DNA of 35,242 nucleotides from Phycisphaerae bacterium (GTDB taxonomy: Bacteria; Planctomycetota; Phycisphaerae; UBA1845). How positions within the stretch are numbered: position 1 is the first letter of the stretch; every line of letters begins with the position of its first letter. Below, piece after piece: positions 2,398 through 19,321 of this stretch. The position numbers were made by a program, and so were the translations under genes. Location: NCBI GenBank assembly GCA_046757145.1, contig JBHHXS010000001.1, positions 1 to 35,242 on the forward strand, given 5' to 3'. The notes beneath the pieces are model-generated. The model had not been told where the DNA came from. It did no database searches and saw only the letters and a program-made list of their open reading frames with translations.

Positions 2398-3507
2398 TCA
2401 ACAGTCGGTCGACGGTGCGGACCCGCGCAGGGATATCAGAGTGGTGGAAGTGGGCGAACACTCAAGGCAGGCGATCGAGTCTGTGTCGGACAGTTCGCCC
2501 CCGCCAACGAGCAGACGGCATGGCAAGTCTATCCGGCTCTCCCGCGTCGGATAGAGCCGCCCGTCATGCAGGGAGACGCCCGCAACGGCCAGGTCGAAGG
2601 CCAGACCTAGCGGCATGGAGCCGTAGAGCGGCGAGTAGCACGCAACGGCAGCGCTGGCCAGATCGGCCTTCCGATAGGTCCGCGCGCAGCCGCTGCCCCC
2701 ATGGGCGCATAGGAACACGGCTCGATGCGACGCCAGGTTGCCGGCGTCCAGTTGCGAGGGGCAGTCGACGCAAGTTATTTCTCGAATCCTGCCGTACCTG
2801 CCGCCTGCTGTCGGGTTGCCTAGCAGGAAGACGACGAACCCCTCGCCTGGCGAACAAGGGCGGCGATCGACGCACCGGGCGTCGATCGTCGATGATGGAC
2901 CCGTGCTGAGTCGGTGGATAGCATAACCTAGAACCGGGCAGTACTCGTCACCCATACCCGCGAGCACATAGTCGACCCTTCCTTCCGCCAGCCACAGCTC
3001 AGCCGTACGCAGTACCTCCGCCGTGGTGCGCTCGAACGTGGTGAGCGTGACCGACGGCCCAGTGATCTGCATTAGGATTGAGACCGTGGAGGCCGGCGCG
3101 CCGTGTACTGAGTTAGCGAACAGCGTTGGTGACGCGCCCTGGTCACCCTCGTCGATGATCGTGTCTTGATAATGGAAAGTCGTCTGCAAGGGCCCGTACG
3201 CGGTGCCGAACGCGATCCCGACGCGGCTCTTGTCCTCGAGCGTCAATCCTGAGTTCTCGACCGCGAGGAATGACGAGAGTAAAGCCATTCGCGTGAGGTT
3301 ATCGGTGCGGCGAAGCGCCCGGGACGGGATGAAGCGCTCGAGCCCTTCAAGGGTGGGCTTGTGCACCGCAAGCTTGCATTCAGGGGATACGCTCGGCACA
3401 GAGGCGTGAACGACGTGGGGCGACGTTGAACCGTCAAGAGCCGCCCTGAGTGAGTCGACCCCGCAGCCCGTACTAGAGACCATACCAATCCCCAGTATAC
3501 AGCTCAT
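2398..3507 (-). CDS. ketosynthase-like protein lacking the active-site Cys (chain-length-factor / KS-beta type partner)
   Basis: Thiolase-fold KS-like sequence (ILGIGMVSSTG…, ASPTLFANSVHGAPASTVSILMQITGPSV). The position of the nucleophile reads TLTTFERTTAE instead of ACxSG. Lies 9 nt downstream of the KS at 3517. Confidence 0.8.
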   Translation of the reverse strand: MSCILGIGMVSSTGCGVDSLRAALDGSTSPHVVHASVPSVSPECKLAVHKPTLEGLERFIPSRALRRTDNLTRMALLSSFLAVENSGLTLEDKSRVGIAFGTAYGPLQTTFHYQDTIIDEGDQGASPTLFANSVHGAPASTVSILMQITGPSVTLTTFERTTAEVLRTAELWLAEGRVDYVLAGMGDEYCPVLGYAIHRLSTGPSSTIDARCVDRRPCSPGEGFVVFLLGNPTAGGRYGRIREITCVDCPSQLDAGNLASHRAVFLCAHGGSGCARTYRKADLASAAVACYSPLYGSMPLGLAFDLAVAGVSLHDGRLYPTRESRIDLPCRLLVGGGELSDTDSIACLECSPTSTTLISLRGSAPSTDC

Positions 3508-3516
3508 GCTCCGCGT

Positions 3517-4710
3517 CTACCTCTGAAACACAAGGACTGCGTTGTTGCCGCCGAAAGCCAGCGAAGTCGATATCGCAACATCCGTTCGGATGCTCGTGTT
3601 CTCCCGCGTCGGGCGAATAGCCACGTCGGCATCCTCCTCGTCAAATCCAGGCGTGGCCGGCAGGCGCTCATCATGCAACGCCTGGAGAGTGAGGATAGCC
3701 TCCAATCCCCCCGCGGCGCCGAGCGTATGTCCTGTGTACGCCTTGGTGGCAACGGCTGGGATGGACTCGGTGAAGAGTTGAGCGAGTACTCGCCCCTCCA
3801 CGCGATCGTTGTCCGGAGTAGCGGTTCCATGGGTGTTGACGAAGCCTACGCGGTCGTGGTCAAGTCCAGCCGTGCGCAGGGCATGTTGGATGGCGCGTTT
3901 CAAACCCAGGCCGTTCGGATGGGGTGCGGTCGTATGATACGCGTCTGCGAAGCTGCCATATCCCGCCACCAGCGCCAGCGCGCACACTCCTCTTTTCTTC
4001 GCGACACTGTCCCGCTCCAAAATGACCACTCCGGCCCCCTCCCCGAGATTCAATCCTTGCCTGTTCTTGTCGAAGGGCCTGCACGGGTGCCGCGAGCTGA
4101 TCAAGAGTTGGATAAACCCCAGATAGGGGATACGGGAAAGCTCGTCGCACCCGCCAGCAAGAGCGATGTCACACTGGCCCTGTTCCACCCAAGCCTTTGC
4201 CAGCCCGATCGCGTCCGTTCCGGAGGAGCATGCATTGGCCACCGTGGCTGCGGGGCCGGACAGGCCGAATGTTGCAGCAAGAAACTTGGCCGGATTGCTG
4301 TCGAGATAACGCTGCACCGGATGCACATCCGGCCTCTGGCCACGCCTGAACTGTCGATAAAACGGCTCGTCGTTGAGCGTGCATCCTACTGTCGTGCCCA
4401 TGCACACGCCCACCCGCAGCGAGCGTAGGGTCTTAAGGTCAAGCTTCGCGTGCGACAACGCTTCCTCAGCCGCTATCAGCGAGAGCTGCGCGGTGCGAGA
4501 GGGTTGGGCTTCCGCCCGCGACTTATACAACGCATCCAGCGGTTCGAGCACTTCAAAGACCGGATAGTCGTCTGTCAGATCAGCGGCGATATTCCGGGGC
4601 GGGCCCGGACGGCGCTCACCCGCATAGAGCGAGCGCATAACCCGCCTGACCGAACTCCCCGCGGCGCATATGGCGCCAAGACCTGTTACAACCGCCCTCG
4701 CTGACTTCAC
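3517..4710 (-). CDS. beta-ketoacyl-ACP synthase II-like ketosynthase (KS-D)
   Basis: Cys-His-His motifs VANACSSGTDAIG, VNTHGTATPDND and YTGHTLGAAGGLEA. Start set at GTG 4710, giving the canonical N-terminus MKSARAVVTGLGAI. ATG 4761 is an alternative but overlaps the upstream gene by 26 nt. ORF-track start 4833 is rejected. Confidence 0.9.
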   Translation of the reverse strand: MKSARAVVTGLGAICAAGSSVRRVMRSLYAGERRPGPPRNIAADLTDDYPVFEVLEPLDALYKSRAEAQPSRTAQLSLIAAEEALSHAKLDLKTLRSLRVGVCMGTTVGCTLNDEPFYRQFRRGQRPDVHPVQRYLDSNPAKFLAATFGLSGPAATVANACSSGTDAIGLAKAWVEQGQCDIALAGGCDELSRIPYLGFIQLLISSRHPCRPFDKNRQGLNLGEGAGVVILERDSVAKKRGVCALALVAGYGSFADAYHTTAPHPNGLGLKRAIQHALRTAGLDHDRVGFVNTHGTATPDNDRVEGRVLAQLFTESIPAVATKAYTGHTLGAAGGLEAILTLQALHDERLPATPGFDEEDADVAIRPTRENTSIRTDVAISTSLAFGGNNAVLVFQR

Positions 4711-4735
4711 CGGTCGCCCCAACGCCAACAGGTCG

Positions 4736-5659
4736 TCAGCCTGCCTGCGACTTCTCGCCATCGTCCCAGAAATCGAAGAAATTAAACCACATAAGCGGAT
4801 TCCTCTCCAGGTACTCCTCGAGACATTTGACATAGCGCTGCAGGAGCAGGTCTATGGCTTCCTCGCGGGGCATTGACCGGAAGTCCTGGTCTTGTGTGAT
4901 ACGGACATGCTCGATCCGGTACGCGCACCTTCCGGTACGAACCGTCAGCAGCACGCCGACATCGGCACCGGTGAGCAGGGCCAGGTGATACGGCGTTATG
5001 GGGAAGTCCGCCTCGTCTCCAAGAAAGGGCACACGCCTCGTCCTGCCCCCCCAGGCTCGATCCCCCATGACGGCTGCGCACTCGCCGGCGTTGAGGGCGT
5101 TGGTCATTTCAACCATACCACCAAGGAAGCCGTCAGGTGAGATGATGTTGAAGCGCTTCCGGTTCCCCGCCAAGTCAAAGAAATGCCGCCCGGTCGTGTG
5201 CGGTTCAAGTCGAAGATGGAAGTGCACCGGTACGTTCAGCGCGTCCATGCTTGCCATCGATGTCTGCCACGCCCCTGCATGGGTGGTAAGCAGAACGATG
5301 CCGGAGCGCGCCCGGGCGGACTCGTACAACTGCCCAGCGCCGGGAAACTCCACTTTGAAAGCGTCAGCGCCCAGCACCCCCATCGCTGCCTGGTCTATAA
5401 GAACCTGTCCGAACGCATAGAAATACTTGACCGTCGCGGCCAATCGTTGGACCGGTGACAAGTCCGGGAATCTGTGGCGGAGGTAAGGAGCTGCCGACCG
5501 CCGCGCGCTGGGACGAAACACCACGTAGTACGGGATTATCAGCATGAGCATGACGTAAGCAGGCACAACGCCGAAGCGCTGGATACACCAGTGGAAGATG
5601 GCATGGCCCAGACGATTACCATAGCGGGGCGAGGCGCGCGGTTGGCCCCTCTTACCCAT
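4736..5659 (-). CDS. LpxL/HtrB-superfamily (lipid A biosynthesis-type / lysophospholipid) acyltransferase
   Basis: N-terminal TM helix (VVPAYVMLMLIIPYYVVF), then an LpxL-like core with IVLLTTHAGAWQ at the usual H-x4-(D/E) position (here H-x4-Q). Start overlaps the upstream GT gene by 8 nt. Same architecture as the acyltransferase of aryl-polyene clusters (from memory). Confidence 0.75.
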   Translation of the reverse strand: MGKRGQPRASPRYGNRLGHAIFHWCIQRFGVVPAYVMLMLIIPYYVVFRPSARRSAAPYLRHRFPDLSPVQRLAATVKYFYAFGQVLIDQAAMGVLGADAFKVEFPGAGQLYESARARSGIVLLTTHAGAWQTSMASMDALNVPVHFHLRLEPHTTGRHFFDLAGNRKRFNIISPDGFLGGMVEMTNALNAGECAAVMGDRAWGGRTRRVPFLGDEADFPITPYHLALLTGADVGVLLTVRTGRCAYRIEHVRITQDQDFRSMPREEAIDLLLQRYVKCLEEYLERNPLMWFNFFDFWDDGEKSQAG

Positions 5660-6959
5660 CGGACGTCGTCCCTCGTCCCGAGCGGGCTTTCCTATAGGTC
5701 AACGCGAGCAGATAGACGCATCCGCCCGCACAAAGCGCGAGCACGGGTGCAAGGATAGACGAGCCGATCAGGTAATCGAGCAGCCTCTGGTGAATCTCGC
5801 GGGCTAGCGTCTGCACGCTGAACTCCGTCAGCCAACGCCCGTGGCGCACGAAGAAGCCGAGCTCGATTGCCAGGGCAGGAACGAGAGGCGGGGCGCAGAG
5901 GTGACTGACGTTGAGTGCCAGCAGCCGATTCAACCGCAAGCGAGTCGCGCAGAATATTATGGCTATGCTGTGGCAGGCGATAAGGGGCAGCGTCCCCAGA
6001 AAGATGCCCAGTGCAGCGGCGGCGGCTAGCTGAGACGGAGAGGACCGTTCGCGCAGCAGCGTGTGCAGCGAACGCAGGGGTCGCTGAAATGAGAATCCCT
6101 CGCCTTTCGCGCGCCACTTCTCCCGGTCGGGGTTGATCTGCCACAATCCAGGCCGCATCGTCTCGGGCCAGAGCACCCTGTGGGGCCAGGGTATGAGATT
6201 CCGGACGACCAGCCGTGTATATGTCCGCGCGGTACGTATGTTGTCCCACCACATGTCGAAGTGAGAGTTGCGCACAGCATCGGCGTCGTAGCGCGCGCTT
6301 ATGTCCACCCAGTCCAGGCTGGCGCCTGACCATGCGCTGCGAACCAGGATCTCGACCTCAAAGTCGTACCGGCGTGCCCGACACTTCATGCGGCGGAGAA
6401 TCTCCACCGGGTACGCCCGGAAACCCGACTGAGTGTCCGGGTGACTGACACCGCACGCTATTCTGGTCCAGAAGTTGGAGAATGCGCGCCCGAACCGGCT
6501 TGAGCGCGGCACCTCGGCGCCCGATAGATCCCTTCTGCCAACGATCAACGCTTGCGGGTTAAGCCTGATTCTCTCCAGGAACTTGGGCGTCTCTCCCGGA
6601 TCATGCTGCCCGTCACCGTCAAGCGTTATGAGGTGAGTGAAAGAATGGTCGTACGCCCAGCGGCCGGCGGCGACGATCGCCGCACCCTTGCCTTGATTCT
6701 CGGAGTAATCGATACGCTCGACACCCAGGCCTGCGAGTTCGGCCGGACCACCGTCAGTGCTCCCGTCATTGACCACCAGTACCGGGAGTCCGAGTTGCAG
6801 GGCCCGCTCGGCTACCTGACGCAACGTGCCTTTGTTGTTGAACGTCGGTATTGCGATCAGCACCCTGATGCCGTCAGCATCTTCAGGGCGTAGTCGAGCC
6901 TCCTGCTCACTCCGCTTGTGCGGTATGGTGGTACATGGAGTTCCAAAGCACGCGGTCAT
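5652..6959 (-). CDS. family 2 glycosyltransferase fused to a C-terminal DUF2062 membrane domain
   Basis: GT2 motifs IAIPTFNNKGTL, VVNDGSTDG and LITLDGDGQHDP. C-terminal polytopic DUF2062-like region (AAAALGIFLGTLPLIACHSIAIIF…). Start set at ATG 6959, which forms an ATGA overlap with the upstream rSAM stop (6956-6959). ORF-track start 7043 is rejected. Confidence 0.85.
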   Translation of the reverse strand: MTACFGTPCTTIPHKRSEQEARLRPEDADGIRVLIAIPTFNNKGTLRQVAERALQLGLPVLVVNDGSTDGGPAELAGLGVERIDYSENQGKGAAIVAAGRWAYDHSFTHLITLDGDGQHDPGETPKFLERIRLNPQALIVGRRDLSGAEVPRSSRFGRAFSNFWTRIACGVSHPDTQSGFRAYPVEILRRMKCRARRYDFEVEILVRSAWSGASLDWVDISARYDADAVRNSHFDMWWDNIRTARTYTRLVVRNLIPWPHRVLWPETMRPGLWQINPDREKWRAKGEGFSFQRPLRSLHTLLRERSSPSQLAAAAALGIFLGTLPLIACHSIAIIFCATRLRLNRLLALNVSHLCAPPLVPALAIELGFFVRHGRWLTEFSVQTLAREIHQRLLDYLIGSSILAPVLALCAGGCVYLLALTYRKARSGRGTTSDG

Positions 6960-8395
6960 GTGGCCCGCCTGAACGCTTTTCTTATACTGAGAAAATCCCT
7001 CAGATTCAGCAGGAAGCGAATCCAACTGCTCGGCGAATGCCACACCATCGTCGCATAGCGCAGCAGCACGGAGGGGCGCTTGAAATACCGGCGGTAGAAC
7101 TCCCGGTAACGCTCCTCGAGGCGTTCAAGCGTCAGCCCCACAGGCGCAAAGATAAAATTAAGGCAGTTCATCAATTCCCAGTTCTCGCAGAACTCCCCAT
7201 GGCGCTCCAGGTCGGCGTACACAGGCGACCCGGGGAAAGGAGTGAACTTGGCCAGGTTGAATTCGTCAAGGGGCAGGCTCAGTACGTACTCGATGCTGCG
7301 GTCGATCGTCTCCTCCGTTTCACCGGGTAGGCCGAGCATGAAAAGCCCCTTCGCCCGGATCCCCACATCTTTTATCCACCCGATGCGTTCACGGATCATA
7401 CCAAGGTCGGCCCCTGACCGGTGTCTCGCCAACAAATCGGGATCGCCGGTCTCCACACCCAGGCTCATCATCCAGCATCCTGCCCGCTTCATGAGGCGCA
7501 GCAAGTCACGATCGATATGTTCGGCACGGGCTGCGCAATTGAATGTCATCTTCATCCGGGAACGCAGCAGACTTTCGCAAAACGCGACCACGCGCCGCCG
7601 GTCGAGCGTAAACAAATCGTCGTACAGATTGACATGGCGGATGCCGAACGCCTCGCGCAGGTGACGAAACAGGTTCAGCATGTACTCCGCGGAATTGTAG
7701 CGGAAGGAGCGCCGAAAAACCGAGCGATCGCAGTAGGAGCATCGGTAGGGGCACCCGCGGCTTGTGACCGCTGTCGTACCCGGGGCCGTGGGGTAGTTGA
7801 AAATAGGGAGCGGATAGGCTCTGGGGAATCCATCGAGCTTGCTGTACGCGGGGAACGGCAGGTCGTCCAGATTCAGCGACGACGTGCGCAGACCGGTGAA
7901 CTCCACCTTCTCGCCCTCTCGCCGGAGCAGCCCCGGCACATCTTCGAGACCCTCGCCATTCCGCTCAAGGATCGCCAGGAGCGCCTCTTCTCCCTCGCCC
8001 ACGACACCATAATCGATCACGGGGTACTCGTGGAGGAGGCGCTCGCGCAGGCCGGATATGTGCACCCCGCCGAAGATCGTTCGAACGTGCGGGTAAGCCG
8101 CTTTGATGTTGGCGGCAATGCGTACAGCGTCGAGAAAGCTCGACGTCGTCGTGCTGAAGCCCACGTAGTCGGGACGCTCCGTGCGCAAGTATCGGTTGAT
8201 TCTGCCATCGCGCCCCGGGTGCGCATAGCAATCATGGATGACGGCGCGATGTCCGTGGCGTTCAACCCACGATGCCAAGCTGCACAAACCGATGGGCGGC
8301 ATGATGTTCGCGATGCGCGACATGTCCTTTTCGCCCGGCATCCAGTTGACGCCCAGCGGGTGAATTAGCAGTATGTTTTTCTTCTTCACGATCAC
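6956..8395 (-). CDS. B12-binding domain radical SAM enzyme (rSAM-1)
   Basis: N-terminal Rossmann-like B12-binding region (KNILLIHPLG…PPIGLCSLASWVERHGH). CX3CX2C cluster motif TSRGCPYRCSYCDRS. GTG start overlaps the previous stop (GTGA, 8392-8395). Confidence 0.9.
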   Translation of the reverse strand: MIVKKKNILLIHPLGVNWMPGEKDMSRIANIMPPIGLCSLASWVERHGHRAVIHDCYAHPGRDGRINRYLRTERPDYVGFSTTTSSFLDAVRIAANIKAAYPHVRTIFGGVHISGLRERLLHEYPVIDYGVVGEGEEALLAILERNGEGLEDVPGLLRREGEKVEFTGLRTSSLNLDDLPFPAYSKLDGFPRAYPLPIFNYPTAPGTTAVTSRGCPYRCSYCDRSVFRRSFRYNSAEYMLNLFRHLREAFGIRHVNLYDDLFTLDRRRVVAFCESLLRSRMKMTFNCAARAEHIDRDLLRLMKRAGCWMMSLGVETGDPDLLARHRSGADLGMIRERIGWIKDVGIRAKGLFMLGLPGETEETIDRSIEYVLSLPLDEFNLAKFTPFPGSPVYADLERHGEFCENWELMNCLNFIFAPVGLTLERLEERYREFYRRYFKRPSVLLRYATMVWHSPSSWIRFLLNLRDFLSIRKAFRRAT

Positions 8396-9846
8396 ACCGC
8401 CCGGTCCGCGCGTCGCCGTCGCGAGGTGCGCGTCCGCCTTCTCAGCAGCATGTCCCAGATTGGCCCGCGATGTCCCATGCGGTGGAACACGTTGAGCCTC
8501 TCGGCGTCCTGCTGCGGGGGATAAATGCGGTCCGGGCGCCCCGCGAACGCCTCCAGCAACGCTTCGTGCACGCGTTGTCGGGACAGCTCAGGAGAGAAGT
8601 AAAACCGTGGGTTCAACAGGTCGTCATCCGCGGGCGCCAGCCCCTGGGCCAGGGCCAGACGGTGAACCCCGGTTCCCGGCAGGATGCGAACTCCGCAGTA
8701 GGCGAATACGACACAATCTGCCAGTCGTCCAATGTTCGCGATTCCCTGCTCCAGGGTCTGCTCCGTCTCGCCCGGGCCACCGAAGATGACAAAGTGGGCG
8801 TTGTTTATGCCGGCTTCCGCGAACAGACTGTTGCTCCGCTCCGCCTGGTCCCAGGTGAAGTCTTTTCCCATGTGTGCCAGCGTGGTGTCGCTGGCGCAGT
8901 CGGTCCCCCACTCCACGGAATGGAGACCAGAACGTCTGAGCAGGGCTATCTCCTCCCGGTCGAATTGCTGCGGGCGAAAGAACGCCATCCACGGGACGTC
9001 GACGCTGCGGCGCACCAGTTCTTCTGCTATGCCCAGATACCGGCCATGGCGGTCGTTGAAAACCGAGTCAGCCATGGCATAGTAGTTCGCTCCGTACCGC
9101 TTTATAAGCGACTCGATCTCGTCGACCACGGCCTCGACGGGGCTGAAGCGGTACGTGCGCCCCTCGAGCACGGGATATGTGCAATAGGCGCAACGGTGAG
9201 GGCAGCCACGCTTGGTCTGCACGTTGAGCATGCCACCATCACGCAGATAGAATGATGCCAGCGCGGGATCACGGCTGTTACATGAAAACTGCTCAGGAGG
9301 GATGACGCGGCTGCTATGAATGACCCGCTCTGCCGGACGATCGCCTGACTCAAGCAGCTCCACCAGCTCGCAGAAGGCGCCCTCACCCTCGCCCACAACT
9401 CCGTAGTCCGCCCCGACGCGATCCACCAGCGAATCCGGGAACAGTGAGAACCCTGCCCCGCCCAAAACGATGGGACGGTCCGTGTGGGCCCGCAGCGCCT
9501 CAACCAACTGCGCTGCTGTGAATCCCGCTCCCGGTCGCACCGGCGCGTCGAGCTCCCTGTCCGCATACGCGATCGGGCACGACGAGTCACAGTTGTCTAT
9601 ATTTCGCAGCGAGATCCCTATCACGTCAGGGTTGAAAGACTCGCGGGCCATCGCCTCCCACATCGTAGCACAGGTGCTTGCTGCGTCGACGATCTTTTCA
9701 TGCGAGCCGACGGCATGGAGCGGGTCCCACTCCCGCACGGTATGGCCTCGTGCCCGCGCTGCCTCGGCCACCAGTGTCATTCCCAAGGGGTATACGGGAT
9801 ACGGTTCACGAGCGAAGTTGCAGGAGATGAGCAGTACGTTGGCCAT
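8392..9846 (-). CDS. B12-binding domain radical SAM enzyme (rSAM-2, 'lipid biosynthesis B12-binding/radical SAM' type)
   Basis: N-terminus MANVLLISCNFAREPYPVYPLGMTLVAEAARARGH (B12-binding fold). CX3CX2C motif TKRGCPHRCAYCTYP. Start ATG 9844-9846 overlaps the upstream stop (TAATG). Confidence 0.9.
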   Translation of the reverse strand: MANVLLISCNFAREPYPVYPLGMTLVAEAARARGHTVREWDPLHAVGSHEKIVDAASTCATMWEAMARESFNPDVIGISLRNIDNCDSSCPIAYADRELDAPVRPGAGFTAAQLVEALRAHTDRPIVLGGAGFSLFPDSLVDRVGADYGVVGEGEGAFCELVELLESGDRPAERVIHSSRVIPPEQFSCNSRDPALASFYLRDGGMLNVQTKRGCPHRCAYCTYPVLEGRTYRFSPVEAVVDEIESLIKRYGANYYAMADSVFNDRHGRYLGIAEELVRRSVDVPWMAFFRPQQFDREEIALLRRSGLHSVEWGTDCASDTTLAHMGKDFTWDQAERSNSLFAEAGINNAHFVIFGGPGETEQTLEQGIANIGRLADCVVFAYCGVRILPGTGVHRLALAQGLAPADDDLLNPRFYFSPELSRQRVHEALLEAFAGRPDRIYPPQQDAERLNVFHRMGHRGPIWDMLLRRRTRTSRRRRADRAV

Positions 9847-11156
9847 TACTCTTGCTCAGTTGATTGACGAGGCGTCGGCTCCCGGCTGCAAACCAGCTCC
9901 GGCCCGCGGCGCAGCCGGCGTCCACCCCCCGCCCTCGCGGCGCGCACATAGGTTCCGTCCTCCATTTCTCGCACAAGGACCTTGCGGAACAACTCGCCCA
10001 TCTTGATTTCCTTGTTGGCTGATGCGTAGAACTTATCCCAGGCGTAGTAGTACATTTCTTGAAGTCGAGCGGGTGACATCCGTTTAGGCGTGAACACCAC
10101 GCGGTCGCACGTGTAGTCCCTCCAATCGCTGCTCAGGATTCGCTTCTCCCGCTCCAACTGCGCGCGGATGGACGTGTGGGGGAAGGGTGTCAGAATCGTA
10201 AACTCCGCCAGGTCCAGTTCGATCTCAAGCAGGAAGTCGACAAGTCGTTTTATGTAATCCTCATCGTGGCCGTCGGTGCCGAGAATGATCGTACCTTCGA
10301 CAGCGATACCATGGTCTTTGTACTTCTTCACCCGCCTGCGTATTACGTCGGAGGTGTCGAAGATGGCCTGGTAGACGTACCAGCACCCCGCCTGGTAGGC
10401 GAGGTCGAGCAGGTCGTCATCGTTCTCAATCGGGTGGCTAACCCATTTTCTCTTGAGTGGAATCAGCGCCCTGAACAGGCGCTCCTGCCACTCGTGATCC
10501 TGGGCCAGCGAGTTGTCGACGAAAAACAGGCGATTGTTGCTGATCGACATGATCTCCTCGACAACTCGCTCGATCGGGCGTGGACGGAAGCGGCACCCAC
10601 CGAGAAACGGAGTGCAGCAGGGGAAGCAATTGAAGCGGCATCCGCGAGAGGCGTGAATCAAATCCAGCATGCGTACGCCGCGATACACGTACTTGTCGTA
10701 GTCGAGAATGTTGCGGCGTGCTGTGCCTACCAGATCGATCAACGGAAAATCGGTGAGATAATCGTACACTCGAGCCGGGCGCCGGTTCTTGAGATCATCG
10801 ATTACGCCTGGCAGCCGCCCCTCGACTTCCCCGAGAAAAACACTGTCGACGTGGGCTGCGAGCTCCTCTGAGTGAAGCATGGCTGCTATACCGCCCGCCA
10901 GCACCGCGATGCCCCGCCGGCGATAATGGTTCGCGATCTCTATCGCCCGCGGCAGTTGTGCGGTCAGCATGATCGAAAGCGCCACCGCGTCCGGGTCGTC
11001 ATCCAGGTGGAGGTCCGCGACGTTCTCGTCCACGAACTCGAGCTGGACGTCATCGGGTATTTCTGCCGCAACGACTACCGGCGCGTGCGGCGGCAGATGG
11101 AATGGAGTCTGCCGCTCAAGCTTGCGCCATTTGGGATAGATCAGTTTCAGTATCAT
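9846..11156 (-). CDS. B12-binding domain radical SAM enzyme (rSAM-3)
   Basis: CX3CX2C motif ASRGCRFNCFPCCTP. N-terminal ~150 aa Rossmann-like region (AVALSIMLTAQLPRAIEIANHYRRRGIAVLAGG). First gene after the 166-nt gap at 11157-11322. Confidence 0.85.
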   Translation of the reverse strand: MILKLIYPKWRKLERQTPFHLPPHAPVVVAAEIPDDVQLEFVDENVADLHLDDDPDAVALSIMLTAQLPRAIEIANHYRRRGIAVLAGGIAAMLHSEELAAHVDSVFLGEVEGRLPGVIDDLKNRRPARVYDYLTDFPLIDLVGTARRNILDYDKYVYRGVRMLDLIHASRGCRFNCFPCCTPFLGGCRFRPRPIERVVEEIMSISNNRLFFVDNSLAQDHEWQERLFRALIPLKRKWVSHPIENDDDLLDLAYQAGCWYVYQAIFDTSDVIRRRVKKYKDHGIAVEGTIILGTDGHDEDYIKRLVDFLLEIELDLAEFTILTPFPHTSIRAQLEREKRILSSDWRDYTCDRVVFTPKRMSPARLQEMYYYAWDKFYASANKEIKMGELFRKVLVREMEDGTYVRAARAGGGRRLRRGPELVCSREPTPRQSTEQE

Positions 11157-11263
11157 TTCGCCGCCTTATCTGCCTTACCGCTTATTGTCCAACTGGGACC
11201 AACGCATCTCCGGGCTTGGGTGTCTCGCGATCTCCCGTCGCTGACACCCCCCTTTGATCACTA

Positions 11264-11277
11264 CCCCTGGCCAGGGG
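11264..11277. repeat. perfect 14-nt palindrome CCCCTGGCCAGGGG in the only sizeable intergenic gap of the cluster
   Basis: Read directly from the sequence. Flanked by C6 (11246-11252) and extended by G-run to 11279. No adjacent U/T tract. Confidence 0.6.
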
Positions 11278-11322
11278 GGAAGGCGCGGGACACGCGCGTA
11301 GTCACTGATGCTGCTCCTGCGA

Positions 11323-13248
11323 TCACTGACGACTGGGCGCCTCACCGAACAGCTCCAGTATTGAAGCGATGCCACGCACGCCGTCCAGTATGACGCTGTC
11401 CCGTGTACATCTGATCCATCTAACCGCACCTGCGGATGCCCGCGGCCTGCTCTCTAGGACGACAAAAACCGCGCCCGGCAGGTCGTCCCCGTCGGCATCT
11501 AGAGCCACCGGCATATCGCCGACCGGGCCGTCGAGCCAACCGGCGATCATGACGGGCGTCAACCGGTCGGCCATTAGGCGCATGGCCGTGCGCAGCGCCG
11601 CAATACCCCTTCCGCCCGCTTCCCCAACGCACAGCGTCGGGCCGGTGAGCTTGAAGCTAAGGGCACATTCCCCCTGCATGATGCAGGGAAGCGTATACGA
11701 GAACAGGTTCGGGCTAGCGAGCGCTCCCCCGTCACAGCGGGCCGTCTCGTAATAAACGCTGTCGGTCACGAGGCACTCTCGCCTGCTCGAGCTGACGACG
11801 CCGCTTGGACATACATCGTTCCCGTCCCGGAGTCGTGCATCGACCAGGGCTAAAGACACCGCACTGCACCCGAGTTTGGTGTACGTATCAAACCGGCCGT
11901 AGCGATTCGGGCGACGCTCGAATATTTCGTCAGGAGGCGGAATCTCAGCACGTCCGGGACCGAGGACCGGAACGGTTCGGTCGCGCAGGCGGCCGTAGCT
12001 GTTCGCGGCGATCCATCCTCCGCCGGTGACAGCGACCTGGAAGTCCTCTTGCCGTACGTCGACGCAGATACGCGAGCGCTTGTGCGCGCGACGATGAGGC
12101 TCGTGCCCTTCGTGGGGCGAGTCCTCCAGCCCGGCTTCGAACACCAGGGCCGCGTTCACTCCACCGAATCCGGAGTTCACGGTAACGATGTTGTCGCCCG
12201 CGAAGGCCTGCGGAGTACCTGCAGCCCTTCCAACGGCGAGCGGCTCCGGTGTCGCCAGCCCCGACGTTGCGGGCACGGTCCGGTTGGCGAGCGCCTTAAG
12301 GCAGATAGCAGCTTCGATGCCACCTGCTGCGCCCAGTGTATGCCCGATCGCCCCTTTGACCGAGAACACCGGGAGAACACGCCCGCCAAAGACCGACTCA
12401 ATAGCGCGCAGTTCCATCGCGTCGTTGTATGCTGTGCCGGTGCCGTGTGCGCACAACGCTTCGACCCCGTCTTGTGACAGGCCGGCACGCAACAGTGCCA
12501 TCCGAATCGCCGTAGCAAGCCCGGTGCCGTCGCGCGATGGGCCCGTGATATGGTTGGCGTCATTGGCTATGCCCCATCCGGTCAACCTGGCCAGCGGCGA
12601 GTAACCGTGCTTCGCAACTACTTCAGCGCTTGCAAGCAGTATTACCACCGCCCCGTCGCCCAGGCTTAGACCGTCCCGTTTTACGTCGAACGGCCGGCAG
12701 GTCGTCGGCGACAGGGCCCCAAGGGCAGCGAACCCGGCGAAAGTGAAATGACTTACCGTGTCGGCTGCGCATACTAAAACCGCCGGGTGCTCTCCCCGAG
12801 CGATCATCTGAGCAGCGACGGCAAGACCCACCGTCGACGACGCACAGGCTGCGTTCACCTCCATCCCCCGGTCTTCTATGCCCAGCTTGGTGCAAACCCA
12901 CCTGCGGTGCTGGCATGGAAGATAGATGTCGGGTACTTCACCTGCCGCGGCTAGGGCCTCGACGTATTCGGCATTGCCCTTCACACCCGCCCAGATGACG
13001 AAGGTCTCGGTAGGCACCGGACGTAGCTGGTCAAGCGCGGTGCCCATCAAAGCGCAAACCCGATTGGGCTCCGTTCCCCGATTCAGGCTGCTGATGCACG
13101 CCGCGCTGTGACACCCAAACGCTTCGGTGCTGAACCCGCGCACTGGGTCTATGGCGCTATGCCCCTCGATGATCCGAGGCCATAGCTCGTCCAGTGAAGC
13201 GCCCAGGGCGCAGACAATTGCGCCGTCGGCAACGTATACCGCACTCAT
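11323..13248 (-). CDS. ketosynthase fused to a C-terminal truncated Cys-less KS-like (CLF-type) domain (KS-C/CLF fusion)
   Basis: N-terminal ~390 aa carry the full triad (NAACASSTVGLAV, LCAHGTGTAYND, KGAIGHTLGAAGGIEA). The C-terminal ~240 aa resemble the N-half of a KS (ASPNLFSYTLPCIMQGECALSFKLTGP) without the nucleophile motif. Start set at ATG 13248, in an ATGA overlap with the dehydratase stop. Confidence 0.85.
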   Translation of the reverse strand: MSAVYVADGAIVCALGASLDELWPRIIEGHSAIDPVRGFSTEAFGCHSAACISSLNRGTEPNRVCALMGTALDQLRPVPTETFVIWAGVKGNAEYVEALAAAGEVPDIYLPCQHRRWVCTKLGIEDRGMEVNAACASSTVGLAVAAQMIARGEHPAVLVCAADTVSHFTFAGFAALGALSPTTCRPFDVKRDGLSLGDGAVVILLASAEVVAKHGYSPLARLTGWGIANDANHITGPSRDGTGLATAIRMALLRAGLSQDGVEALCAHGTGTAYNDAMELRAIESVFGGRVLPVFSVKGAIGHTLGAAGGIEAAICLKALANRTVPATSGLATPEPLAVGRAAGTPQAFAGDNIVTVNSGFGGVNAALVFEAGLEDSPHEGHEPHRRAHKRSRICVDVRQEDFQVAVTGGGWIAANSYGRLRDRTVPVLGPGRAEIPPPDEIFERRPNRYGRFDTYTKLGCSAVSLALVDARLRDGNDVCPSGVVSSSRRECLVTDSVYYETARCDGGALASPNLFSYTLPCIMQGECALSFKLTGPTLCVGEAGGRGIAALRTAMRLMADRLTPVMIAGWLDGPVGDMPVALDADGDDLPGAVFVVLESRPRASAGAVRWIRCTRDSVILDGVRGIASILELFGEAPSRQ

Positions 13249-14297
13249 GCCGACTTCATCCATTCAGCGTCATCGCGCGCGTTTGATCCCCGGCCATCGC
13301 GCACGTCGAACCGTAGTGTTGCGATGTTCCCCCCTTGACTCGTCACGGATGCGCGCACCGACCGGGTGGCACCGTCGGGCGCCAAGCCGACCTCCACTAG
13401 CACGGGTTGTCTGGGAAGCACGCGACCGGTGAACTTCGCCTTCTCCACACAGGCGAGCTCCAACGCCTCCTCGACGACACCTTCCGCCAGCACGAGTGCC
13501 GTCTTCAGCAGGATGACTCCTGGCAGGATCGGGCCGGAGGGGAAATGGCCGTCGAACCCGGGAAACGCCTTGCGAAAGCTGAACTCCGCGGCAACTTGCC
13601 CCCGGGCACCGCACGGATGGATCCGTGTGCCGCTGTCGAGCACGGCCCGATGCATCCGGCTTGCTCGATCCGCGAACCGCAGCCAACGGTCAAGCGCCCC
13701 CGGACTGTGCGCACTCTGCGCTGGGTGTTTCTGAATTGCGGGCGATGTCGTGGACGCGACGGGCGGTGCCGGCAGACCGGGCTCCTCCCATACCTTCAGA
13801 ACACCGTATGCCAGCAACGTGGCACCATTGAGTACACGCGCCTCCATTATCGCCGTCTGCTCCAACACAAAGGTCTGGCGGACCTCTATCGCCAGTGAAT
13901 CATCGGCGCGTGCCGTCGCAGTCAGGTTGAGTTCCTTTATTCCCACGAGGTAGCCTGATGTGGGCCGTCCACCCGCCCGCGAAGCCTCGTATCCCCGCAG
14001 CGCAGCCGCACCCTGGGCCAGCATCTCGATCAATGCGACGCCCTCGAGCGTGCCTTGTGCATCAAGAAAGGGATTGTCGGGCGAGACTGTTGTTCGACAG
14101 CGGGCAACGCCCTCGCCGCACTCCGTCAACTCGTCCAGCATCAGCATGGCACCGCGATGCAGTAACACCCGCTCAGCCGATATGGGTGTACGGACCTCAT
14201 GGTGCACTTCGCCTACACGGTCCGCGGACCTTGGCGGCGCCGACTGCCGGCGTCCAGCCCGGTTGCTGTAGTTCTCCTTGCCGGGTGACTCACTCAC
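13245..14297 (-). CDS. double-hotdog FabZ/FabA-like 3-hydroxyacyl thioester dehydratase
   Basis: Two hotdog halves. N-half: LLHRGAMLMLDEL…GVALIEMLAQGAA. C-half: FPGFDGHFPSGPILPGVILLKTALVLAEG. GTG start overlaps the upstream stop by 8 nt; the start is uncertain. Confidence 0.8.
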   Translation of the reverse strand: MSESPGKENYSNRAGRRQSAPPRSADRVGEVHHEVRTPISAERVLLHRGAMLMLDELTECGEGVARCRTTVSPDNPFLDAQGTLEGVALIEMLAQGAAALRGYEASRAGGRPTSGYLVGIKELNLTATARADDSLAIEVRQTFVLEQTAIMEARVLNGATLLAYGVLKVWEEPGLPAPPVASTTSPAIQKHPAQSAHSPGALDRWLRFADRASRMHRAVLDSGTRIHPCGARGQVAAEFSFRKAFPGFDGHFPSGPILPGVILLKTALVLAEGVVEEALELACVEKAKFTGRVLPRQPVLVEVGLAPDGATRSVRASVTSQGGNIATLRFDVRDGRGSNARDDAEWMKSA

Positions 14298-15198
14298 CCA
14301 AGTACTCCCTCAAGACTCCCTCGACGTGCCGCCGCAGCTTCAACGCGCGGTTGCGGTCCGGGAACGAGCACGGGTCCACTGCTGGAAAAAACTCCATGGT
14401 AACGTAGGCGGGCTTGAACTCATGCGACCCGGGGGCGCACAAACGCTCCGTGCCCCTGATACAAACCGGGACGATCGGCAGGTTGCACGCTACCGCTAGC
14501 CTGAACGCACCTGACTGAAAGCGCTGCAGACACCCATCGCGTGAACGGTGCCCCTCCGCGAAACACAAAAAGGAAACACCGCGGCGCGACAACGCCACGA
14601 CCATCTCTGCCGCCTCATCGAATGAGACCCGCTCGATATCGATGTATCCCGCTCGACGCATGAACCACCCGAAGATGGGCAGGTCGAAAGGCCACGAACG
14701 CACCAGAACGGCTACGTTGGGAAGCGTCGCCAATCCGAAGAAGAAGATGTCGAACAGCGATCTGTGGTTCGTGACCATCATCACCGATCCCGTGGCTGGA
14801 ACCCGCGCCCCTTTCACAGCGGCGGAGCGCACGAAGCCATCGGCCGAACCAAGGCGATAGGCACCTCCACCTCTGCCGCATCTTAGCAGATTAGCCAACC
14901 CACGGCGCCGCAACCTTACGAAAGGCCAGAAGAACCTGACCATGAACGCCCCGTAGTACCCGTTGTGCATCCGCCATGCATCATCCCGGTCTCCGAGGTT
15001 CAGCAGCACATGGAACCCCAGGAATACAAGAAAGCACGTCTCAAACACGGCTGACAACATCGCGGCATAGAGGATGCAGACAGCGTTGACGCACCATGAC
15101 ACAGCGTGCTCCGCCGGCCCGTCAGCCCGCCCCCGCCTGCAAGGTGCGTCAGCCTTTTTCCGGTGTCTGCTGCTTACCTGCTCATAGCAAGCGCGCAT
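14290..15198 (-). CDS. PlsC-family (1-acyl-sn-glycerol-3-phosphate-type) acyltransferase with N-terminal TM segments
   Basis: Acyltransferase motifs NHRSLFD (H-x4-D), FAEGHRSRDG and PIVPVCIRG. Hydrophobic N-terminus (VCILYAAMLSAVFETCFLVFLGF). The start lies 1 nt after the upstream KS stop. Confidence 0.85.
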   Translation of the reverse strand: MRACYEQVSSRHRKKADAPCRRGRADGPAEHAVSWCVNAVCILYAAMLSAVFETCFLVFLGFHVLLNLGDRDDAWRMHNGYYGAFMVRFFWPFVRLRRRGLANLLRCGRGGGAYRLGSADGFVRSAAVKGARVPATGSVMMVTNHRSLFDIFFFGLATLPNVAVLVRSWPFDLPIFGWFMRRAGYIDIERVSFDEAAEMVVALSRRGVSFLCFAEGHRSRDGCLQRFQSGAFRLAVACNLPIVPVCIRGTERLCAPGSHEFKPAYVTMEFFPAVDPCSFPDRNRALKLRRHVEGVLREYLGE

Positions 15199-15199
15199 G

Positions 15200-16438
15200 T
15201 TAACGCGTCCGCACGACGAGCACCGCGTTCACACCGCCGAATGCGAAGTTGTTCTTGACGAACCTGCGGACGCTTCCACGTCGCCTCGTCATAACGTGAG
15301 CCAAATCCTCACACCCCTCTCCGGGAATCTCGAGGTTCAACGTGGGAATCACGTACCCGTCTTCCTGCATACACAGACAAGCTATCAGCTCGAGCGCCCC
15401 GCTGGCACCAAGGGTGTGCCCTAGATGACCCTTGAAGCTGCTGACCGGAACGCCGCGCTCCCCGAATACGAGTTTGAGTGCTGCTGCCTCCTCGCGGTCT
15501 CCTTGAAGAGTGCCGGTTGCATGGGCGTTCACGTAGTCGATGGCGTCTGCAGGCACTCCGGCGTCATCCAACGCCTGCCTCAAGCACTCAACGATAGAGT
15601 CGCGGTGCGGCTGCGCTATGTGGCTTCCATCGCTCGTCGTGGCGTAGCCGATCACCTCACCCAGAATCTCCGCTCCACGCTCCGAAGCGCTCCGTTCACT
15701 CTCAAGGACAAGTGCGCCCGCACCCTCCCCGCACACGATGCCGTCTCTATCCCGGTCAAACGGGCGCGGTGTGCGCGTCGGCTGATCGTTGAAACGCGAG
15801 GACGCCGCGTGCACCAGATCGAAGCAAGCCGTTACCATAACGTGCAGTTCGTCAGCGCCGCCGCACAGCATGATTTCCTGGTAGCCGCCTTTGATCGCCT
15901 CGACCGCGCAACCGATAGCCTGCAGCGAGGATGCGCACGCACACGCGGGCGAGTGCACCCGGCCTGGTAGGTTCAGAGCGTGTGCGAGGTTGGCCGCACA
16001 CGTATGGCTCATGAACCTGAAGAAGGTGTTGGCAGGAAGACCTTCAATCCTGCCCTTCTCGAAGCATGCCGCAAAGAACTCCTCCAGGCTGCTTGTGCTC
16101 CCCATCGTCGACGCGAAGCTCACGCCCATCCGTCTCGAGCGACAATCCGCAGGGGGGATGTGGGCACGCGCCAAGGCCTCGAGGCACGCGACGTAGGCAA
16201 GCTGGGCGACACGGCCCATCGAGCGGCGCACCGTCCGGGGAATCGACTCGGAATCGAGTGACTCGCGCAGCGGGGCCGCAACCCAGCTCGTTAGATCGCT
16301 CAGGCTGGCCTGCCACTCGTCCTTTCTGTTGACGACGGCTGAGCAACCGCTGTTCAATGAGGCCATGAGACGCTTCACCCCTATTCCAAAAGGAGAAATG
16401 GCTCCCACGCCGGTGATGACGACTTTGTTCAGCGGCAT
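15200..16438 (-). CDS. beta-ketoacyl-ACP synthase II-like ketosynthase (KS-B)
   Basis: Start set at ATG 16438 (MPLNKVVITGVGAISPFG). Triad motifs SPACACASSLQAIG, VNAHATGTLQGD and KGHLGHTLGASGALE. ORF-track start 16684 lies inside the upstream gene. Confidence 0.9.
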   Translation of the reverse strand: MPLNKVVITGVGAISPFGIGVKRLMASLNSGCSAVVNRKDEWQASLSDLTSWVAAPLRESLDSESIPRTVRRSMGRVAQLAYVACLEALARAHIPPADCRSRRMGVSFASTMGSTSSLEEFFAACFEKGRIEGLPANTFFRFMSHTCAANLAHALNLPGRVHSPACACASSLQAIGCAVEAIKGGYQEIMLCGGADELHVMVTACFDLVHAASSRFNDQPTRTPRPFDRDRDGIVCGEGAGALVLESERSASERGAEILGEVIGYATTSDGSHIAQPHRDSIVECLRQALDDAGVPADAIDYVNAHATGTLQGDREEAAALKLVFGERGVPVSSFKGHLGHTLGASGALELIACLCMQEDGYVIPTLNLEIPGEGCEDLAHVMTRRRGSVRRFVKNNFAFGGVNAVLVVRTR

Positions 16439-17949
16439 TTTTGAAGCCCCTCCCAGACAGTCTCCGCTCCGAGTATCTCGCTGACAGCCAGAAGACCTGA
16501 GATTAGCACTCCCAGCAGTCCCGGCGCCAAGACGCTCTGCCCGGCCAGGTACAGGCCGCTGAGAGGAGTCCGCGCCATCAACCCTGCTTGTGCAACGCTC
16601 TGCTTCATGCCATAGGCCGACCCGCCCACAGTACCGGTGTAGGACTCGTATGTGCAGGGTGTCGCTGAGTCCAGCACGCGGCATTTGCCACGGAGCTCGG
16701 GAAAGCGAAGGTAAAATGCCTCGACGGTCTTTTCGGTCGCCCGATGCTTCATGTACTCATAGGTCTTGTCGCGAGCCCACGCACCGCCGACGTGGTTGGT
16801 GGGCACTCCAGCGTCCGCGGCGCCGCAGCCGCCTCGCATGGACTTACCAACGCCGGAGCCCGCGCTCTGCACCGAGATGACGGCAAGACTCTTGGGTTCG
16901 AGTCCATTGCCGCCGTCACCGCACGCCGGAACCACGTAGATAGCTCGCGCTCCGGCGGGCTCGCATGGGGCGTCGATGAAGTAACGGTTGCTGCGCCCGA
17001 GCTCTTTGGGAGTGTCGTCAAGACCTAGATAGACGGTGAACAGACCCGGCGTGTTCTCCTGCCAACGCACGCGAGTCATAAACGATTTGCGAATCGACTG
17101 GGCCGGGAGCAGTTCCGCCAACCGGTGAGGATGCACGGTACAGACGCAGGCCTCGCACCGCAATTGGCCACCACCATCCAGTTGCACACCGCAAACACGA
17201 CGATGTCGATCGACGACAAGTCGAGAAGCCCGTTGTCCGCTGTAGATCGCGGCGCCGGCTTCATTGATCCGACGCTTAAAGGCATCCACAACCTCGTCAC
17301 CGCCTCGCGCAAATGTGTGTGCGGAGAAGAAGAATGAGCCGAGCACCATCGCGTGAACCATCATCGGACATTCGTCGCCGTGCATGCCGTACAGGCAGAA
17401 CCCATACTCGCTGAGCATGTCCTGGAGCGCTTCTTCCGCGCCATATGTTGCCAGCGACGTAGCCAAGCTCTCCGTCGGTGTGTGCATGTGCGAGCGGAGT
17501 AGGCTGGCGGGATGGTCGAACCCCAGGAACGGCGTCTCCCGGTGCACGGCTTGCACAGCATCCAGATAGGCTTTGATCGCCCGCTCACTACGCGGGTAAT
17601 GGCGAATCAGCGTTTCTTGCACGCGGAGCGGCCCGACGGGAAACCGTATGGGCTCCGCATCACCCACCTGGACGATGTCGTAGGCGTCCCGGTCCAATGG
17701 CAAGGGTTCAACGAGGGTATCAAGGGCAAGATAGCGGAAGATCACCGCGAGCGGGCCGGACGGGGACAGCCCACCTACATAGTGCAAACCCGGGTCGCAC
17801 CACCATCCGTCGCGACAGAAGCGGCGCAGGAGCGGGGCCAGCTCGTCATCCTGTTCCACGAGAGCTACACGCTGACCGTGCCGTGCAAGTGCCAACGCCG
17901 TGCACATGCCGCTGGCTCCGGACCCTATTACCACCGTGTCATACGTCAT
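16429..17949 (-). CDS. NAD(P)/FAD-dependent oxidoreductase of the phytoene desaturase (CrtI/CrtD-like) family
   Basis: Start set at ATG 17949 (ATGA overlap with the KS-A stop). Dinucleotide fold YDTVVIGSGASGMCTALALARHGQRVALVEQ. The ~500 aa length and the C-terminal GLYLAGQSVLAPGLLG are typical of CrtI-type flavoenzymes. Confidence 0.8.
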   Translation of the reverse strand: MTYDTVVIGSGASGMCTALALARHGQRVALVEQDDELAPLLRRFCRDGWWCDPGLHYVGGLSPSGPLAVIFRYLALDTLVEPLPLDRDAYDIVQVGDAEPIRFPVGPLRVQETLIRHYPRSERAIKAYLDAVQAVHRETPFLGFDHPASLLRSHMHTPTESLATSLATYGAEEALQDMLSEYGFCLYGMHGDECPMMVHAMVLGSFFFSAHTFARGGDEVVDAFKRRINEAGAAIYSGQRASRLVVDRHRRVCGVQLDGGGQLRCEACVCTVHPHRLAELLPAQSIRKSFMTRVRWQENTPGLFTVYLGLDDTPKELGRSNRYFIDAPCEPAGARAIYVVPACGDGGNGLEPKSLAVISVQSAGSGVGKSMRGGCGAADAGVPTNHVGGAWARDKTYEYMKHRATEKTVEAFYLRFPELRGKCRVLDSATPCTYESYTGTVGGSAYGMKQSVAQAGLMARTPLSGLYLAGQSVLAPGLLGVLISGLLAVSEILGAETVWEGLQKCR

Positions 17950-19178: not shown

Positions 19179-19321
19179 GAACCAGCCCCTGCCCACGCCT
19201 TCGAGCGTACGACGCGGCTTACTGAAGCTCAGGGTTAAGTCGTAAGGGGTGCGGCACGGACGTTCGATCCGGGTGTTTTGCCTCCGCAACTCTCGGCCCA
19301 CGAGCGCTGGCGAGCGAGTCG

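Follow-up and report, generated by a model that had tools for sequence, protein, structure and literature searches.

The 35,242-nt stretch of DNA analyzed here (the window) is an entire contig from the metagenome-assembled genome (MAG) of a Phycisphaerae bacterium, which is not an anaerobic ammonium-oxidizing (anammox) organism. It carries a 14-gene operon on the minus strand, running in the list of open reading frames (ORFs) from approximately position 19975 down to 2398 (Table 1). NCBIfam and Pfam annotation of this operon is rich in ketosynthases (KSs) and supports its identification as a fatty-acyl/polyketide assembly, the setting that a preliminary description of the window had given it. 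Within the operon lie three consecutive genes for radical S-adenosylmethionine (SAM) enzymes, rSAM-A, rSAM-B, and rSAM-C (A, B, and C in the following), which are the subject of this study. The trio is not peculiar to this genome; we observe that it is a conserved and widespread block.

Each of the three proteins contains a single CX3CX2C motif, at residue 173 in A (ASRGCRFNCFPCC), residue 215 in B (TKRGCPHRCAYC), and residue 215 in C (TSRGCPYRCSYC), and the motif is invariant across the family alignments of all three. A and B are joined by a 1-nt overlap (TAATG) and B and C by a 4-nt overlap (GTGA), and the start of the following GT2/DUF2062 gene overlaps the stop codon of C (ATGA), so that the four consecutive genes are translationally coupled. 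The NCBI model of C (P0121, 477 aa) begins two codons downstream, and the genes still abut. BLASTP aligns A and B at 30% identity over 125 aa, A and C at 26% over 232 aa, and B and C at 23% over 358 aa, and this low identity over partial lengths indicates old paralogues, not recent duplicates. The preliminary description had reported three adjacent ORFs with one motif each, joined by 1-nt and 4-nt overlaps and too dissimilar to be recent tandem duplicates; the ORF list, the motif count, the junction sequences, and the BLASTP comparison bear it out on all these counts.

Its further claim, that these are distinct radical SAM enzymes of class B architecture, is supported by the motif in combination with the Pfam B12-binding domain (PF02310). 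This domain exceeds its gathering score of 32.1 bits in A (34.2 bits, marginally), B (48.9 bits), and C (78.2 bits). The Radical_SAM domain lies above its gathering score of 29.5 bits in B and C and below it in A (20.4 bits). Both class B hallmarks, the CX3CX2C motif and a predicted N-terminal Rossmann-type domain, are accordingly present in all three proteins, the domain of A being marginal.

Profile searches at curated NCBIfam cutoffs assign B alone to a named family. B scores 531.3 bits over its full length against TIGR04072 (model rSAM_ladder_B12; cutoff, 360 bits), and the NCBI name of a protein identical to B (P0241) is that of this family; A (43 bits) and C (103 bits) are nonmembers. 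The lipid biosynthesis B12-binding/radical SAM family that the preliminary description named thus exists, and the name applies to B and fails for A and C. B also scores 186 bits for BzaD and 113.7 bits for TsrM (TIGR04428; cutoff, 500 bits), with Val262 at the position of TsrM E273. C, named by NCBI as “B12-binding domain-containing radical SAM protein,” scores highest for ApyD (180 bits), BchE (159 bits), HpnJ (158 bits), and a P-methyltransferase family (150 bits), all far under the cutoffs, and A reaches at most 59 bits on any NCBIfam family. By these profiles, A and C belong to no named family.

Profiles of characterized enzyme families gave the following scores for A, B, and C: 41, 36, and 83 bits for HpnR (cutoff, 650 bits); 46, 61, and 158 bits for HpnJ (577.6 bits); 41, 70, and 159 bits for BchE (481 bits); and, despite a similarity in fold, 37.6, 62.9, and 101.5 bits for AprD4 (NF033070; 500 bits). 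HpnP is absent from the NCBIfam matches of all three, and none reaches a family of enzymes for ribosomally synthesized and posttranslationally modified peptides. The Pfam annotation of the window contains no hopanoid or bacteriochlorophyll genes. Profile placement therefore puts no member of the trio in HpnR, HpnJ, BchE, peptide-modifying, or other characterized families, and the neighborhood conserved around the genes is of a lipid type, not an unrelated one. We also considered the tetraether and membrane-spanning lipid synthases (Tes/Mss type), which combine a radical SAM domain with auxiliary Fe-S clusters and do not have a cobalamin domain, and rejected this assignment: each of the three proteins carries a B12-type domain, and no extra conserved Cys cluster is present in their alignments. 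Tetraether synthase structures are also absent from the best 50 fold matches for A and for B, no direct sequence comparison having been made.

AlphaFold2 models of A and B (predicted local distance difference test, 90.4 and 90.2) show an N-terminal beta-alpha domain followed by a partial TIM barrel, in line with the fold that the preliminary description expected, with the reservation that the best match of A is AprD4 (PDB 6FD2; template modeling [TM] score, 0.72 to 0.74; E value, ~1e-18), followed by TsrM (0.66). The best Foldseek match of B is TsrM (PDB 6WTE and 6WTF; TM score, 0.77 to 0.79), with 24% identity across the whole chain, and the B family profile matches TsrM in the cobalamin domain (79 bits) and again in the radical SAM domain (93 bits). 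In this alignment, the invariant R81 of B (LRNID) corresponds to TsrM R69 and V262 (ADSVFN) to TsrM E273. We take R69 to lie below the corrin and E273 to ligate or block the unique iron of the cluster; with Val at the latter position, B should cleave SAM radically, unlike TsrM. Judging from these alignments, B probably binds cobalamin as TsrM does. The C family profile aligns with TokK, OxsB, and TsrM, N-terminal domains included. Both A and C find AprD4 as their best PDB sequence match, at ~20% identity, and for A only the radical SAM half is aligned. To our knowledge, AprD4 has a B12-like domain without cobalamin, and its likeness to A leaves cobalamin use by A uncertain. The B12-binding label of the preliminary description is thus secure at the level of sequence profiles for B and C only, the support for A being at the level of fold. 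The fold matches of the A and B models also include MgmA, CysS, OxsB, and TokK, and in CysS there is already a class B enzyme whose substrate is tethered to pantetheine.

The database contains more than 6,000 relatives of A, the best 120 of which are 64 to 80% identical over more than 92% of the length; organisms named among these 120 belong to Phycisphaerae, Sumerlaeia, Lentisphaerae, Nitrospirae, Thermodesulfovibrionia, and Deltaproteobacteria. A genome scan with A, at one genome per species, found a relative in at least 592 species. The relatives span more than 10 phyla at 61 to 80% identity, and the carriers named in the scan mostly belong to groups known as anaerobes. The best 80 of the at least 592 matches include Geobacter, Desulfuromonas, Desulfuromusa kysingii DSM 7343 (locus L052), Syntrophus, Desulfotalea, Holophaga, Nitrospirota, Cloacimonadales (Cloacimonadota), Omnitrophota, Spirochaetota, Verrucomicrobiota, and others. 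Anammox genomes are not among these best 80. The approximately 80 loci compared below (numbered with the prefix L) are these best matches to A, and frequencies among them are indicative and do not constitute an unbiased census.

Across these loci the usual gene order is [dehydratase]-KS-CLF-like-A-B-(C)-GT2/DUF2062-LpxL-type-(ACP)-KS-CLF, where CLF denotes a chain-length factor and ACP an acyl carrier protein, and the commonest A/B junction is a 4-nt overlap. Among the 70 loci with enough downstream sequence, A-B-C is found in 27, A-B in 25, and A-C in 3, which defines A-B as the core and C as an accessory. The recurrence of A-B-C in 27 of these loci from several phyla, with A-B in 25 more, shows that the arrangement is not due to chance. 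Roughly every second related locus has C, its family being 57 to 79% conserved. Median identity to the window proteins over the same loci is 64% for A, 54% for C, 42 to 52% for the ketosynthases, 42% for GT2, 40% for B, and 29 to 36% for the rest. Of all the cluster genes, A is conserved best, and it is under unusually strong constraint; since A alone is so conserved, transfer of the whole cluster is not a sufficient explanation. Clustering at 50% leaves approximately two full-length representatives of the A orthogroup, the next relatives being only 30 to 40% identical. These relatives belong to no named NCBIfam family and have unrelated neighborhoods, so that placing A through them gave no functional lead.

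Several departures from the usual order show what A travels with. In a number of Geobacteraceae loci (L032, L038, L058, L060, and L077), A-B-C is kept without GT2-DUF2062 within 10 kb. The most divergent A orthologue (50%, L087) is accompanied by ACPs, a KS-CLF fusion, a desaturase flavoprotein, an ammonia-lyase, and ApeI/ApeP genes, while B, C, and GT2 are all absent; this cluster represents a different elaboration of the same type of pathway. Its A gene also has as neighbors two more radical SAM genes that lack a B12 domain, together with a PS-DH/ACPS fusion (L087:6745-8956, minus strand). In the closest relative of the window (L086:1-19572; A 80% identical), the cluster ends right after A and is followed by unrelated opposite-strand genes. 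Taken together, the GT2-less A-B-C loci, L087, and L086 link A with the KS/CLF/ACP machinery and not with the glycosyltransferase. A substrate bound to a carrier, whether acyl, polyene, or aryl, is thereby favored, and sugar modification disfavored.

Table 1. Genes of the minus-strand operon in the window, listed in order of descending position, with the basis of each assignment
Feature	Position	Strand	Length	Basis
Lipoprotein-like ORF at operon head	19322..19975	(-)	217 aa	No Pfam match
Ketosynthase KS1	17946..19301	(-)		Pfam
CrtI/CrtD-like FAD amine-oxidase-family desaturase (“phytoene dehydrogenase-like”)	16429..18021	(-)		NCBIfam + Pfam
Ketosynthase KS2	15200..16684	(-)		Pfam; ORF exceeds the 414-416 aa of homologues
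PlsC-type acyltransferase	14290..15198	(-)		PF01553, 79 bits
Double hot-dog dehydratase, ApeP-like + ApeI/FabA-like	13245..14297	(-)		Weak Pfam matches
KS3 fused to CLF-like partner	11323..13263	(-)	646 aa	NCBIfam + Pfam
rSAM-A, radical SAM enzyme of class B architecture, unnamed highly conserved family	9846..11156	(-)	436 aa	
rSAM-B, TIGR04072 “lipid biosynthesis B12-binding/radical SAM protein”	8392..9846	(-)	484 aa	
rSAM-C, accessory class B radical SAM enzyme, BchE/HpnJ/ApyD-like, under every cutoff	6956..8395	(-)	479 aa	
GT2 + DUF2062 transferase, ApeJ-like	5652..6959	(-)		Pfam PF00535 + PF09835, junction, synteny
LpxL-type (Lip_A_acyltrans, PF03279) acyltransferase	4736..5659	(-)		Pfam; syntenic in 52 loci
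Ketosynthase KS4	3517..4833	(-)		NCBIfam + Pfam; Cys-His-His intact by eye
CLF-like KS homologue (CLF369), without active-site Cys	2398..3507	(-)		Pfam ketoacyl-synt + Ketoacyl-synt_2, sequence

A KS3/CLF-type pair precedes A at almost every locus. In most loci the pair consists of separate genes of ~377 and 234 aa, as in L001, L003, and L085 (377 + 234 aa); the fusion seen in the window recurs in L086, L006, and L015, with two Cloacimonadales loci among the carriers of the fusion. Between this fusion and A, the window has a 166-nt noncoding gap (11157-11322), where relatives have less than 10 nt. An Rfam scan of this gap and of the whole window yielded no cobalamin riboswitch, and a promoter/terminator scan of the operon, the gap included, yielded nothing that exceeds shuffled expectation. 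Among the other operon genes, the start of KS4 is probably ~38 codons inside its ORF, its homologues being 397 to 400 aa long. The dehydratase scores under the gathering scores of PF22817 (ApeP-like, 20.9 bits) and PF22818 (ApeI-like, 21.3 bits) and above that of FabA; ApeP/ApeI matches are on record for its orthologues in L001, L085, and L086. The lipoprotein-like ORF at the operon head is 51 to 55% identical to the first cluster gene of L085 and L086, with weaker matches in several distant loci.

The genes that recur within 10 kb in related loci encode a 4HBT thioesterase (54 loci), ACP (48), MMPL (44), LolA (43), a DUF3261-type lipoprotein (34), an AMP-ligase (30), an aromatic ammonia-lyase (23), and PagL (17). 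A CrtI-like gene lies within 10 kb in 14 of 82 loci, and in 10 loci when an alignment of at least 150 aa is required, and the class-I-methyltransferase-like family is found in three loci in all. Ketoreductase is absent from nearly all related loci, and none of the 62 loci carrying B has a short-chain dehydrogenase/reductase gene within 10 kb. Ammonia-lyase is present in 17 of 29 loci with C and in 2 of 22 without it (Fisher p = 3.5e-4, uncorrected for phylogeny). We treat this association as a lead only, and the window and L085 run contrary to it in carrying C without ammonia-lyase.

In comparison with these relatives, the local copy is reduced. Using tblastn with the relatives' proteins, we found no ACP, AMP-ligase, thioesterase, LolA, DUF3261, MMPL, or ammonia-lyase genes in the window. 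The ACP genes are cleanly missing at the 15198/15200 junction and at 4736-4833, with intact flanking ORFs and no ACP-like sequence on the contig; in relatives they are found at L086:5820-6134, L085:6049-6321, and L085:16431-16688. L085, at 3,671,026-3,692,315 of the complete Phycisphaerales genome CP070744.1, has the gene order of the window with the full A-B-C block plus ACPs, LolA, DUF3261, and MMPL, and a Phycisphaerae locus (L005) has A-B-GT2 with C missing.

Both flanks of the operon are occupied by plus-strand genes. One (20804-23611) encodes a 935-aa Cys-rich secreted protein with weak dockerin-/cohesin-like matches and is syntenic in L086; the other (1288-2382) has a prepilin-type N terminus, DUF1559-like by eye, as is typical of Planctomycetota. 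Further along, a selenocysteine tRNA with anticodon TCA (23813-23907, plus strand; Rfam, 67 bits, and ARAGORN) is the sole Rfam match in the window, and indicates that the source organism probably makes selenoproteins. An 898-aa protein (29724-32420, minus strand) combines two response-regulator receiver domains with GGDEF, GAF, and HD/HD_5 (HD-GYP-type) domains and is unrelated to the radical SAM trio.

With modest confidence, we lean toward reading the trio as a conserved tailoring block, an A-B core with an accessory C, in a type II fatty-acid/polyketide-like cluster of anaerobes. The KS/CLF pairs, the dehydratases, and the flavoprotein would build an unsaturated chain on a carrier protein, aryl-primed in many lineages, and the translationally coupled radical SAM enzymes would then functionalize unactivated carbons of the chain intermediate. 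B would act as a canonical cobalamin-dependent radical enzyme of TsrM-like fold, with C-methylation as its most likely reaction, and C would be a second cobalamin-type enzyme, either a methylase or ring-forming. For A, with its predicted AprD4-like fold, we leave the chemistry unspecified. Finally, the GT2-DUF2062, LpxL, and PlsC transferases would attach the product to a membrane anchor. Tailoring of the KS-built chain is plausible, and the preliminary description may be right that three radical steps act on it; what we observe is the identity, architecture, family placement, and synteny of the enzymes, and from these we infer the substrate, the order of steps, and every reaction. As a whole, its interpretation is partly supported.

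Several points weigh against this tailoring reading. Neither a product nor a reaction has so far been assigned to any member. Heterologous expression of Kuenenia genes in Escherichia coli gave no new lipid, the kuste3342 and kuste3343 proteins being undetected (PMC4790861). Cobalamin binding by A, B, and C is predicted, in the case of A by fold alone and with AprD4 as best match, and the nearest named relatives of C, though distant, include nonmethylating enzymes, the cyclase BchE and HpnJ, which performs ring contraction. The window itself is without both ACPs, thioesterase, AMP-ligase, LolA, and MMPL, and either borrows parts encoded elsewhere or is decaying.

A bolder version, possible but doubtful in our judgment, holds that A-B(-C) performs unprecedented radical chemistry on a ketoacyl/polyene lipid: it might close rings, form cross-links, or methylate sp2/sp3 carbons while the polyene is bound to its carrier. 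On this view the block would mark out a class of envelope lipids that is widespread among anaerobes and hitherto undescribed, and A would be a new family whose reaction explains its conservation.

Rather unlikely, and still the strongest of the alternatives, is that one or more of the three enzymes make C-C bonds by radical chemistry instead of methylating, through ring closure or cross-linking within the chain or by joining the chain to an aryl head. Most characterized class B enzymes are methylases, which counts against it; the naming of BchE and HpnJ among the best relatives of C would favor it, although both scores are far under the family cutoffs. Lipid rings are formed by the B12-domain radical SAM enzymes GrsA and GrsB (PMC13459092), so that GrsA/B cyclopentane or BchE logic could be followed here, and the CrtI-like desaturase and dehydratases could provide a polyene substrate. 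Desulfotalea, however, has the A-B pair and makes acyclic polyunsaturated hydrocarbons with no rings (PMC2649909).

The second alternative concerns the source genome and not the family, namely that the local copy is a decaying remnant that makes no product. The losses relative to L085 (both ACPs, thioesterase, AMP-ligase, LolA, DUF3261, and MMPL) fit such decay, as does the cluster of the closest relative, L086, which stops after A. We nevertheless regard this as improbable: all 14 ORFs have kept their full length, their catalytic motifs, and their overlapping junctions, the ACP deletions are clean, and the missing parts may sit elsewhere in the genome, the window being only 35 kb.

We give little credence to head-group chemistry, in which A and/or C would modify the sugar installed by GT2-DUF2062, either deoxygenating it as AprD4 does or contracting a ring in the manner of HpnJ. 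In its favor, the genes for C and GT2 are translationally coupled, the sugar diol dehydratase AprD4 is the best solved relative of A and C, and the HpnJ substrate is a glucosaminyl lipid (PMC13459092). The five Geobacteraceae loci listed above nonetheless keep A-B-C in the absence of GT2-DUF2062, and L087 and L086 carry A without any GT2, A always lying beside KS/CLF genes. We ranked this sugar-modification reading low, since the block can do without the GT2 gene.

Equally hard to credit is the hypothesis of Rattray et al. of oxygen-independent desaturation, by which the radical SAM pair and the CrtI-like flavoprotein would make a polyunsaturated chain anaerobically. The named carriers come mostly from anaerobic groups, in keeping with it, yet a CrtI-like gene is near only the minority of loci counted above. 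The A-B pair and a “phytoene dehydrogenase” are common to Kuenenia and to Desulfotalea, which makes polyunsaturated hydrocarbons (PMC2649909); on the other hand, dehydratases of the ApeI/ApeP type yield polyenes without desaturases (PMC8253772), and heterologous expression gave no polyunsaturated fatty acids (PMC4790861, PMC10139942).

That this Phycisphaerae bacterium makes cyclobutane ladder lipids with the trio is extremely improbable, despite the model name of the family of B and the cluster type “ladderane” assigned by genome-mining tools (PMC9902471), since A relatives occur in many nonanammox phyla among at least 592 species, ladderanes are known from anammox bacteria only, with none in Desulfotalea (PMC2649909), and the supposed anammox-specific cluster is another one, kuste3603-3608 (bioRxiv 10.64898/2026.05.19.726425). 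We rejected this reading on the distribution of A relatives together with the Desulfotalea findings (PMC2649909).

The trio is real, conserved, and rightly seen as unusual, and it belongs to a cluster family that is already known, annotated, and uncharacterized. At its core is probably the pair of radical SAM genes under suspicion since the 2000s (PMC2649909). In hundreds of anaerobes, the A-B pair with an optional C forms a fixed module of an aryl-polyene-like pathway; cultivable ones are among them, with Desulfuromusa kysingii DSM 7343, Geobacter, and Desulfotalea psychrophila as candidates. A, its most constrained component, is of uncertain cofactor, and the module is not confined to anammox bacteria, so that the question shifts from intractable anammox bacteria to tractable hosts; we argue that the “ladderane” label on such clusters misleads. 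The window itself is a reduced copy and no new kind of system, and it does not make the chemistry newly testable.

Compared with known systems, the window cluster has the same component types as those of Kuenenia stuttgartiensis (kuste3335-3352) and Desulfotalea psychrophila (DP185x) (PMC2649909, PMC4790861). Those clusters contain FabF-like KS genes, including inactive ones, a FabZ-like dehydratase, and a phytoene-dehydrogenase-like flavoprotein (PMC2649909, PMC4790861), and, as listed in 2009, SAM-radical enzymes, a phenylacetyl-CoA-type ligase, a glycosyltransferase, and a membrane protein (PMC2649909). The adjacent SAM-radical pair kuste3342/3343 was matched to DP1853/DP1855 (PMC2649909), and a Desulfotalea MAG locus (L039) reads A-B-GT2-LpxL-ACP-KS, the order of the window. 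By way of this locus and that match (PMC2649909), A and B are putative orthologues of kuste3343 and kuste3342, respectively. Relative to this type, the window has in C a third radical SAM gene and lacks ACP, FabG, and SAM-methylase genes. Clusters of this type fall in the antiSMASH “ladderane” class and are routinely reported as such in nonanammox phyla, with no function assigned (PMC9902471, PMC11968836).

With aryl polyene (APE) and flexirubin clusters, the window shares the KS/CLF heterodimer logic, with two KS/CLF pairs, and probably dehydratases of the ApeP/ApeI type, for which its own matches lie under the gathering scores. It also shares with APE clusters a GT2-DUF2062 protein (ApeJ-like; PF00535 + PF09835) and lysophospholipid/LpxL-type acyltransferases (ApeD-like; PF03279 and PF01553), gene roles following PMC8253772. 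Fuller relatives add two ACPs, a 4HBT thioesterase (ApeK-like), an AMP-ligase (ApeH-like), LolA and MMPL export, and often an aromatic ammonia-lyase; of the APE accessory set (ACPs, AMP-ligase, thioesterase, ketoreductase, and LolA/MMPL), tblastn and Pfam find none in the window, and most are present in relatives. Canonical APE clusters have a ketoreductase and a class I methyltransferase and neither radical SAM nor CrtI-like desaturase (PMC8253772), whereas the window type adds a CrtI-like flavoprotein and the radical SAM block and is without ketoreductase.

Among single enzymes, the tryptophan C2-methyltransferase TsrM is the best solved relative of B and shares with it the conserved Arg below the corrin (R81 in B); B differs in having Val for the cluster-ligating Glu273, and its substrate is certainly different. 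AprD4, a radical SAM 1,2-diol dehydratase, matches A in fold, whereas the window has no aminoglycoside context, and the C profile, beyond AprD4, also aligns with cobalamin-bound TokK and OxsB. The domain architecture of the trio is shared with HpnP/HpnR, HpnJ, and GrsA/GrsB, which act on inert carbons of membrane lipids (PMC13459092). Lipid modification by radical SAM enzymes has been documented almost exclusively on isoprenoids, the fatty-acyl-type proposals being ladderanes and jawsamycin only (PMC13459092); those enzymes have isoprenoid lipid substrates, whereas the trio described here lies in a ketoacyl/polyketide context.

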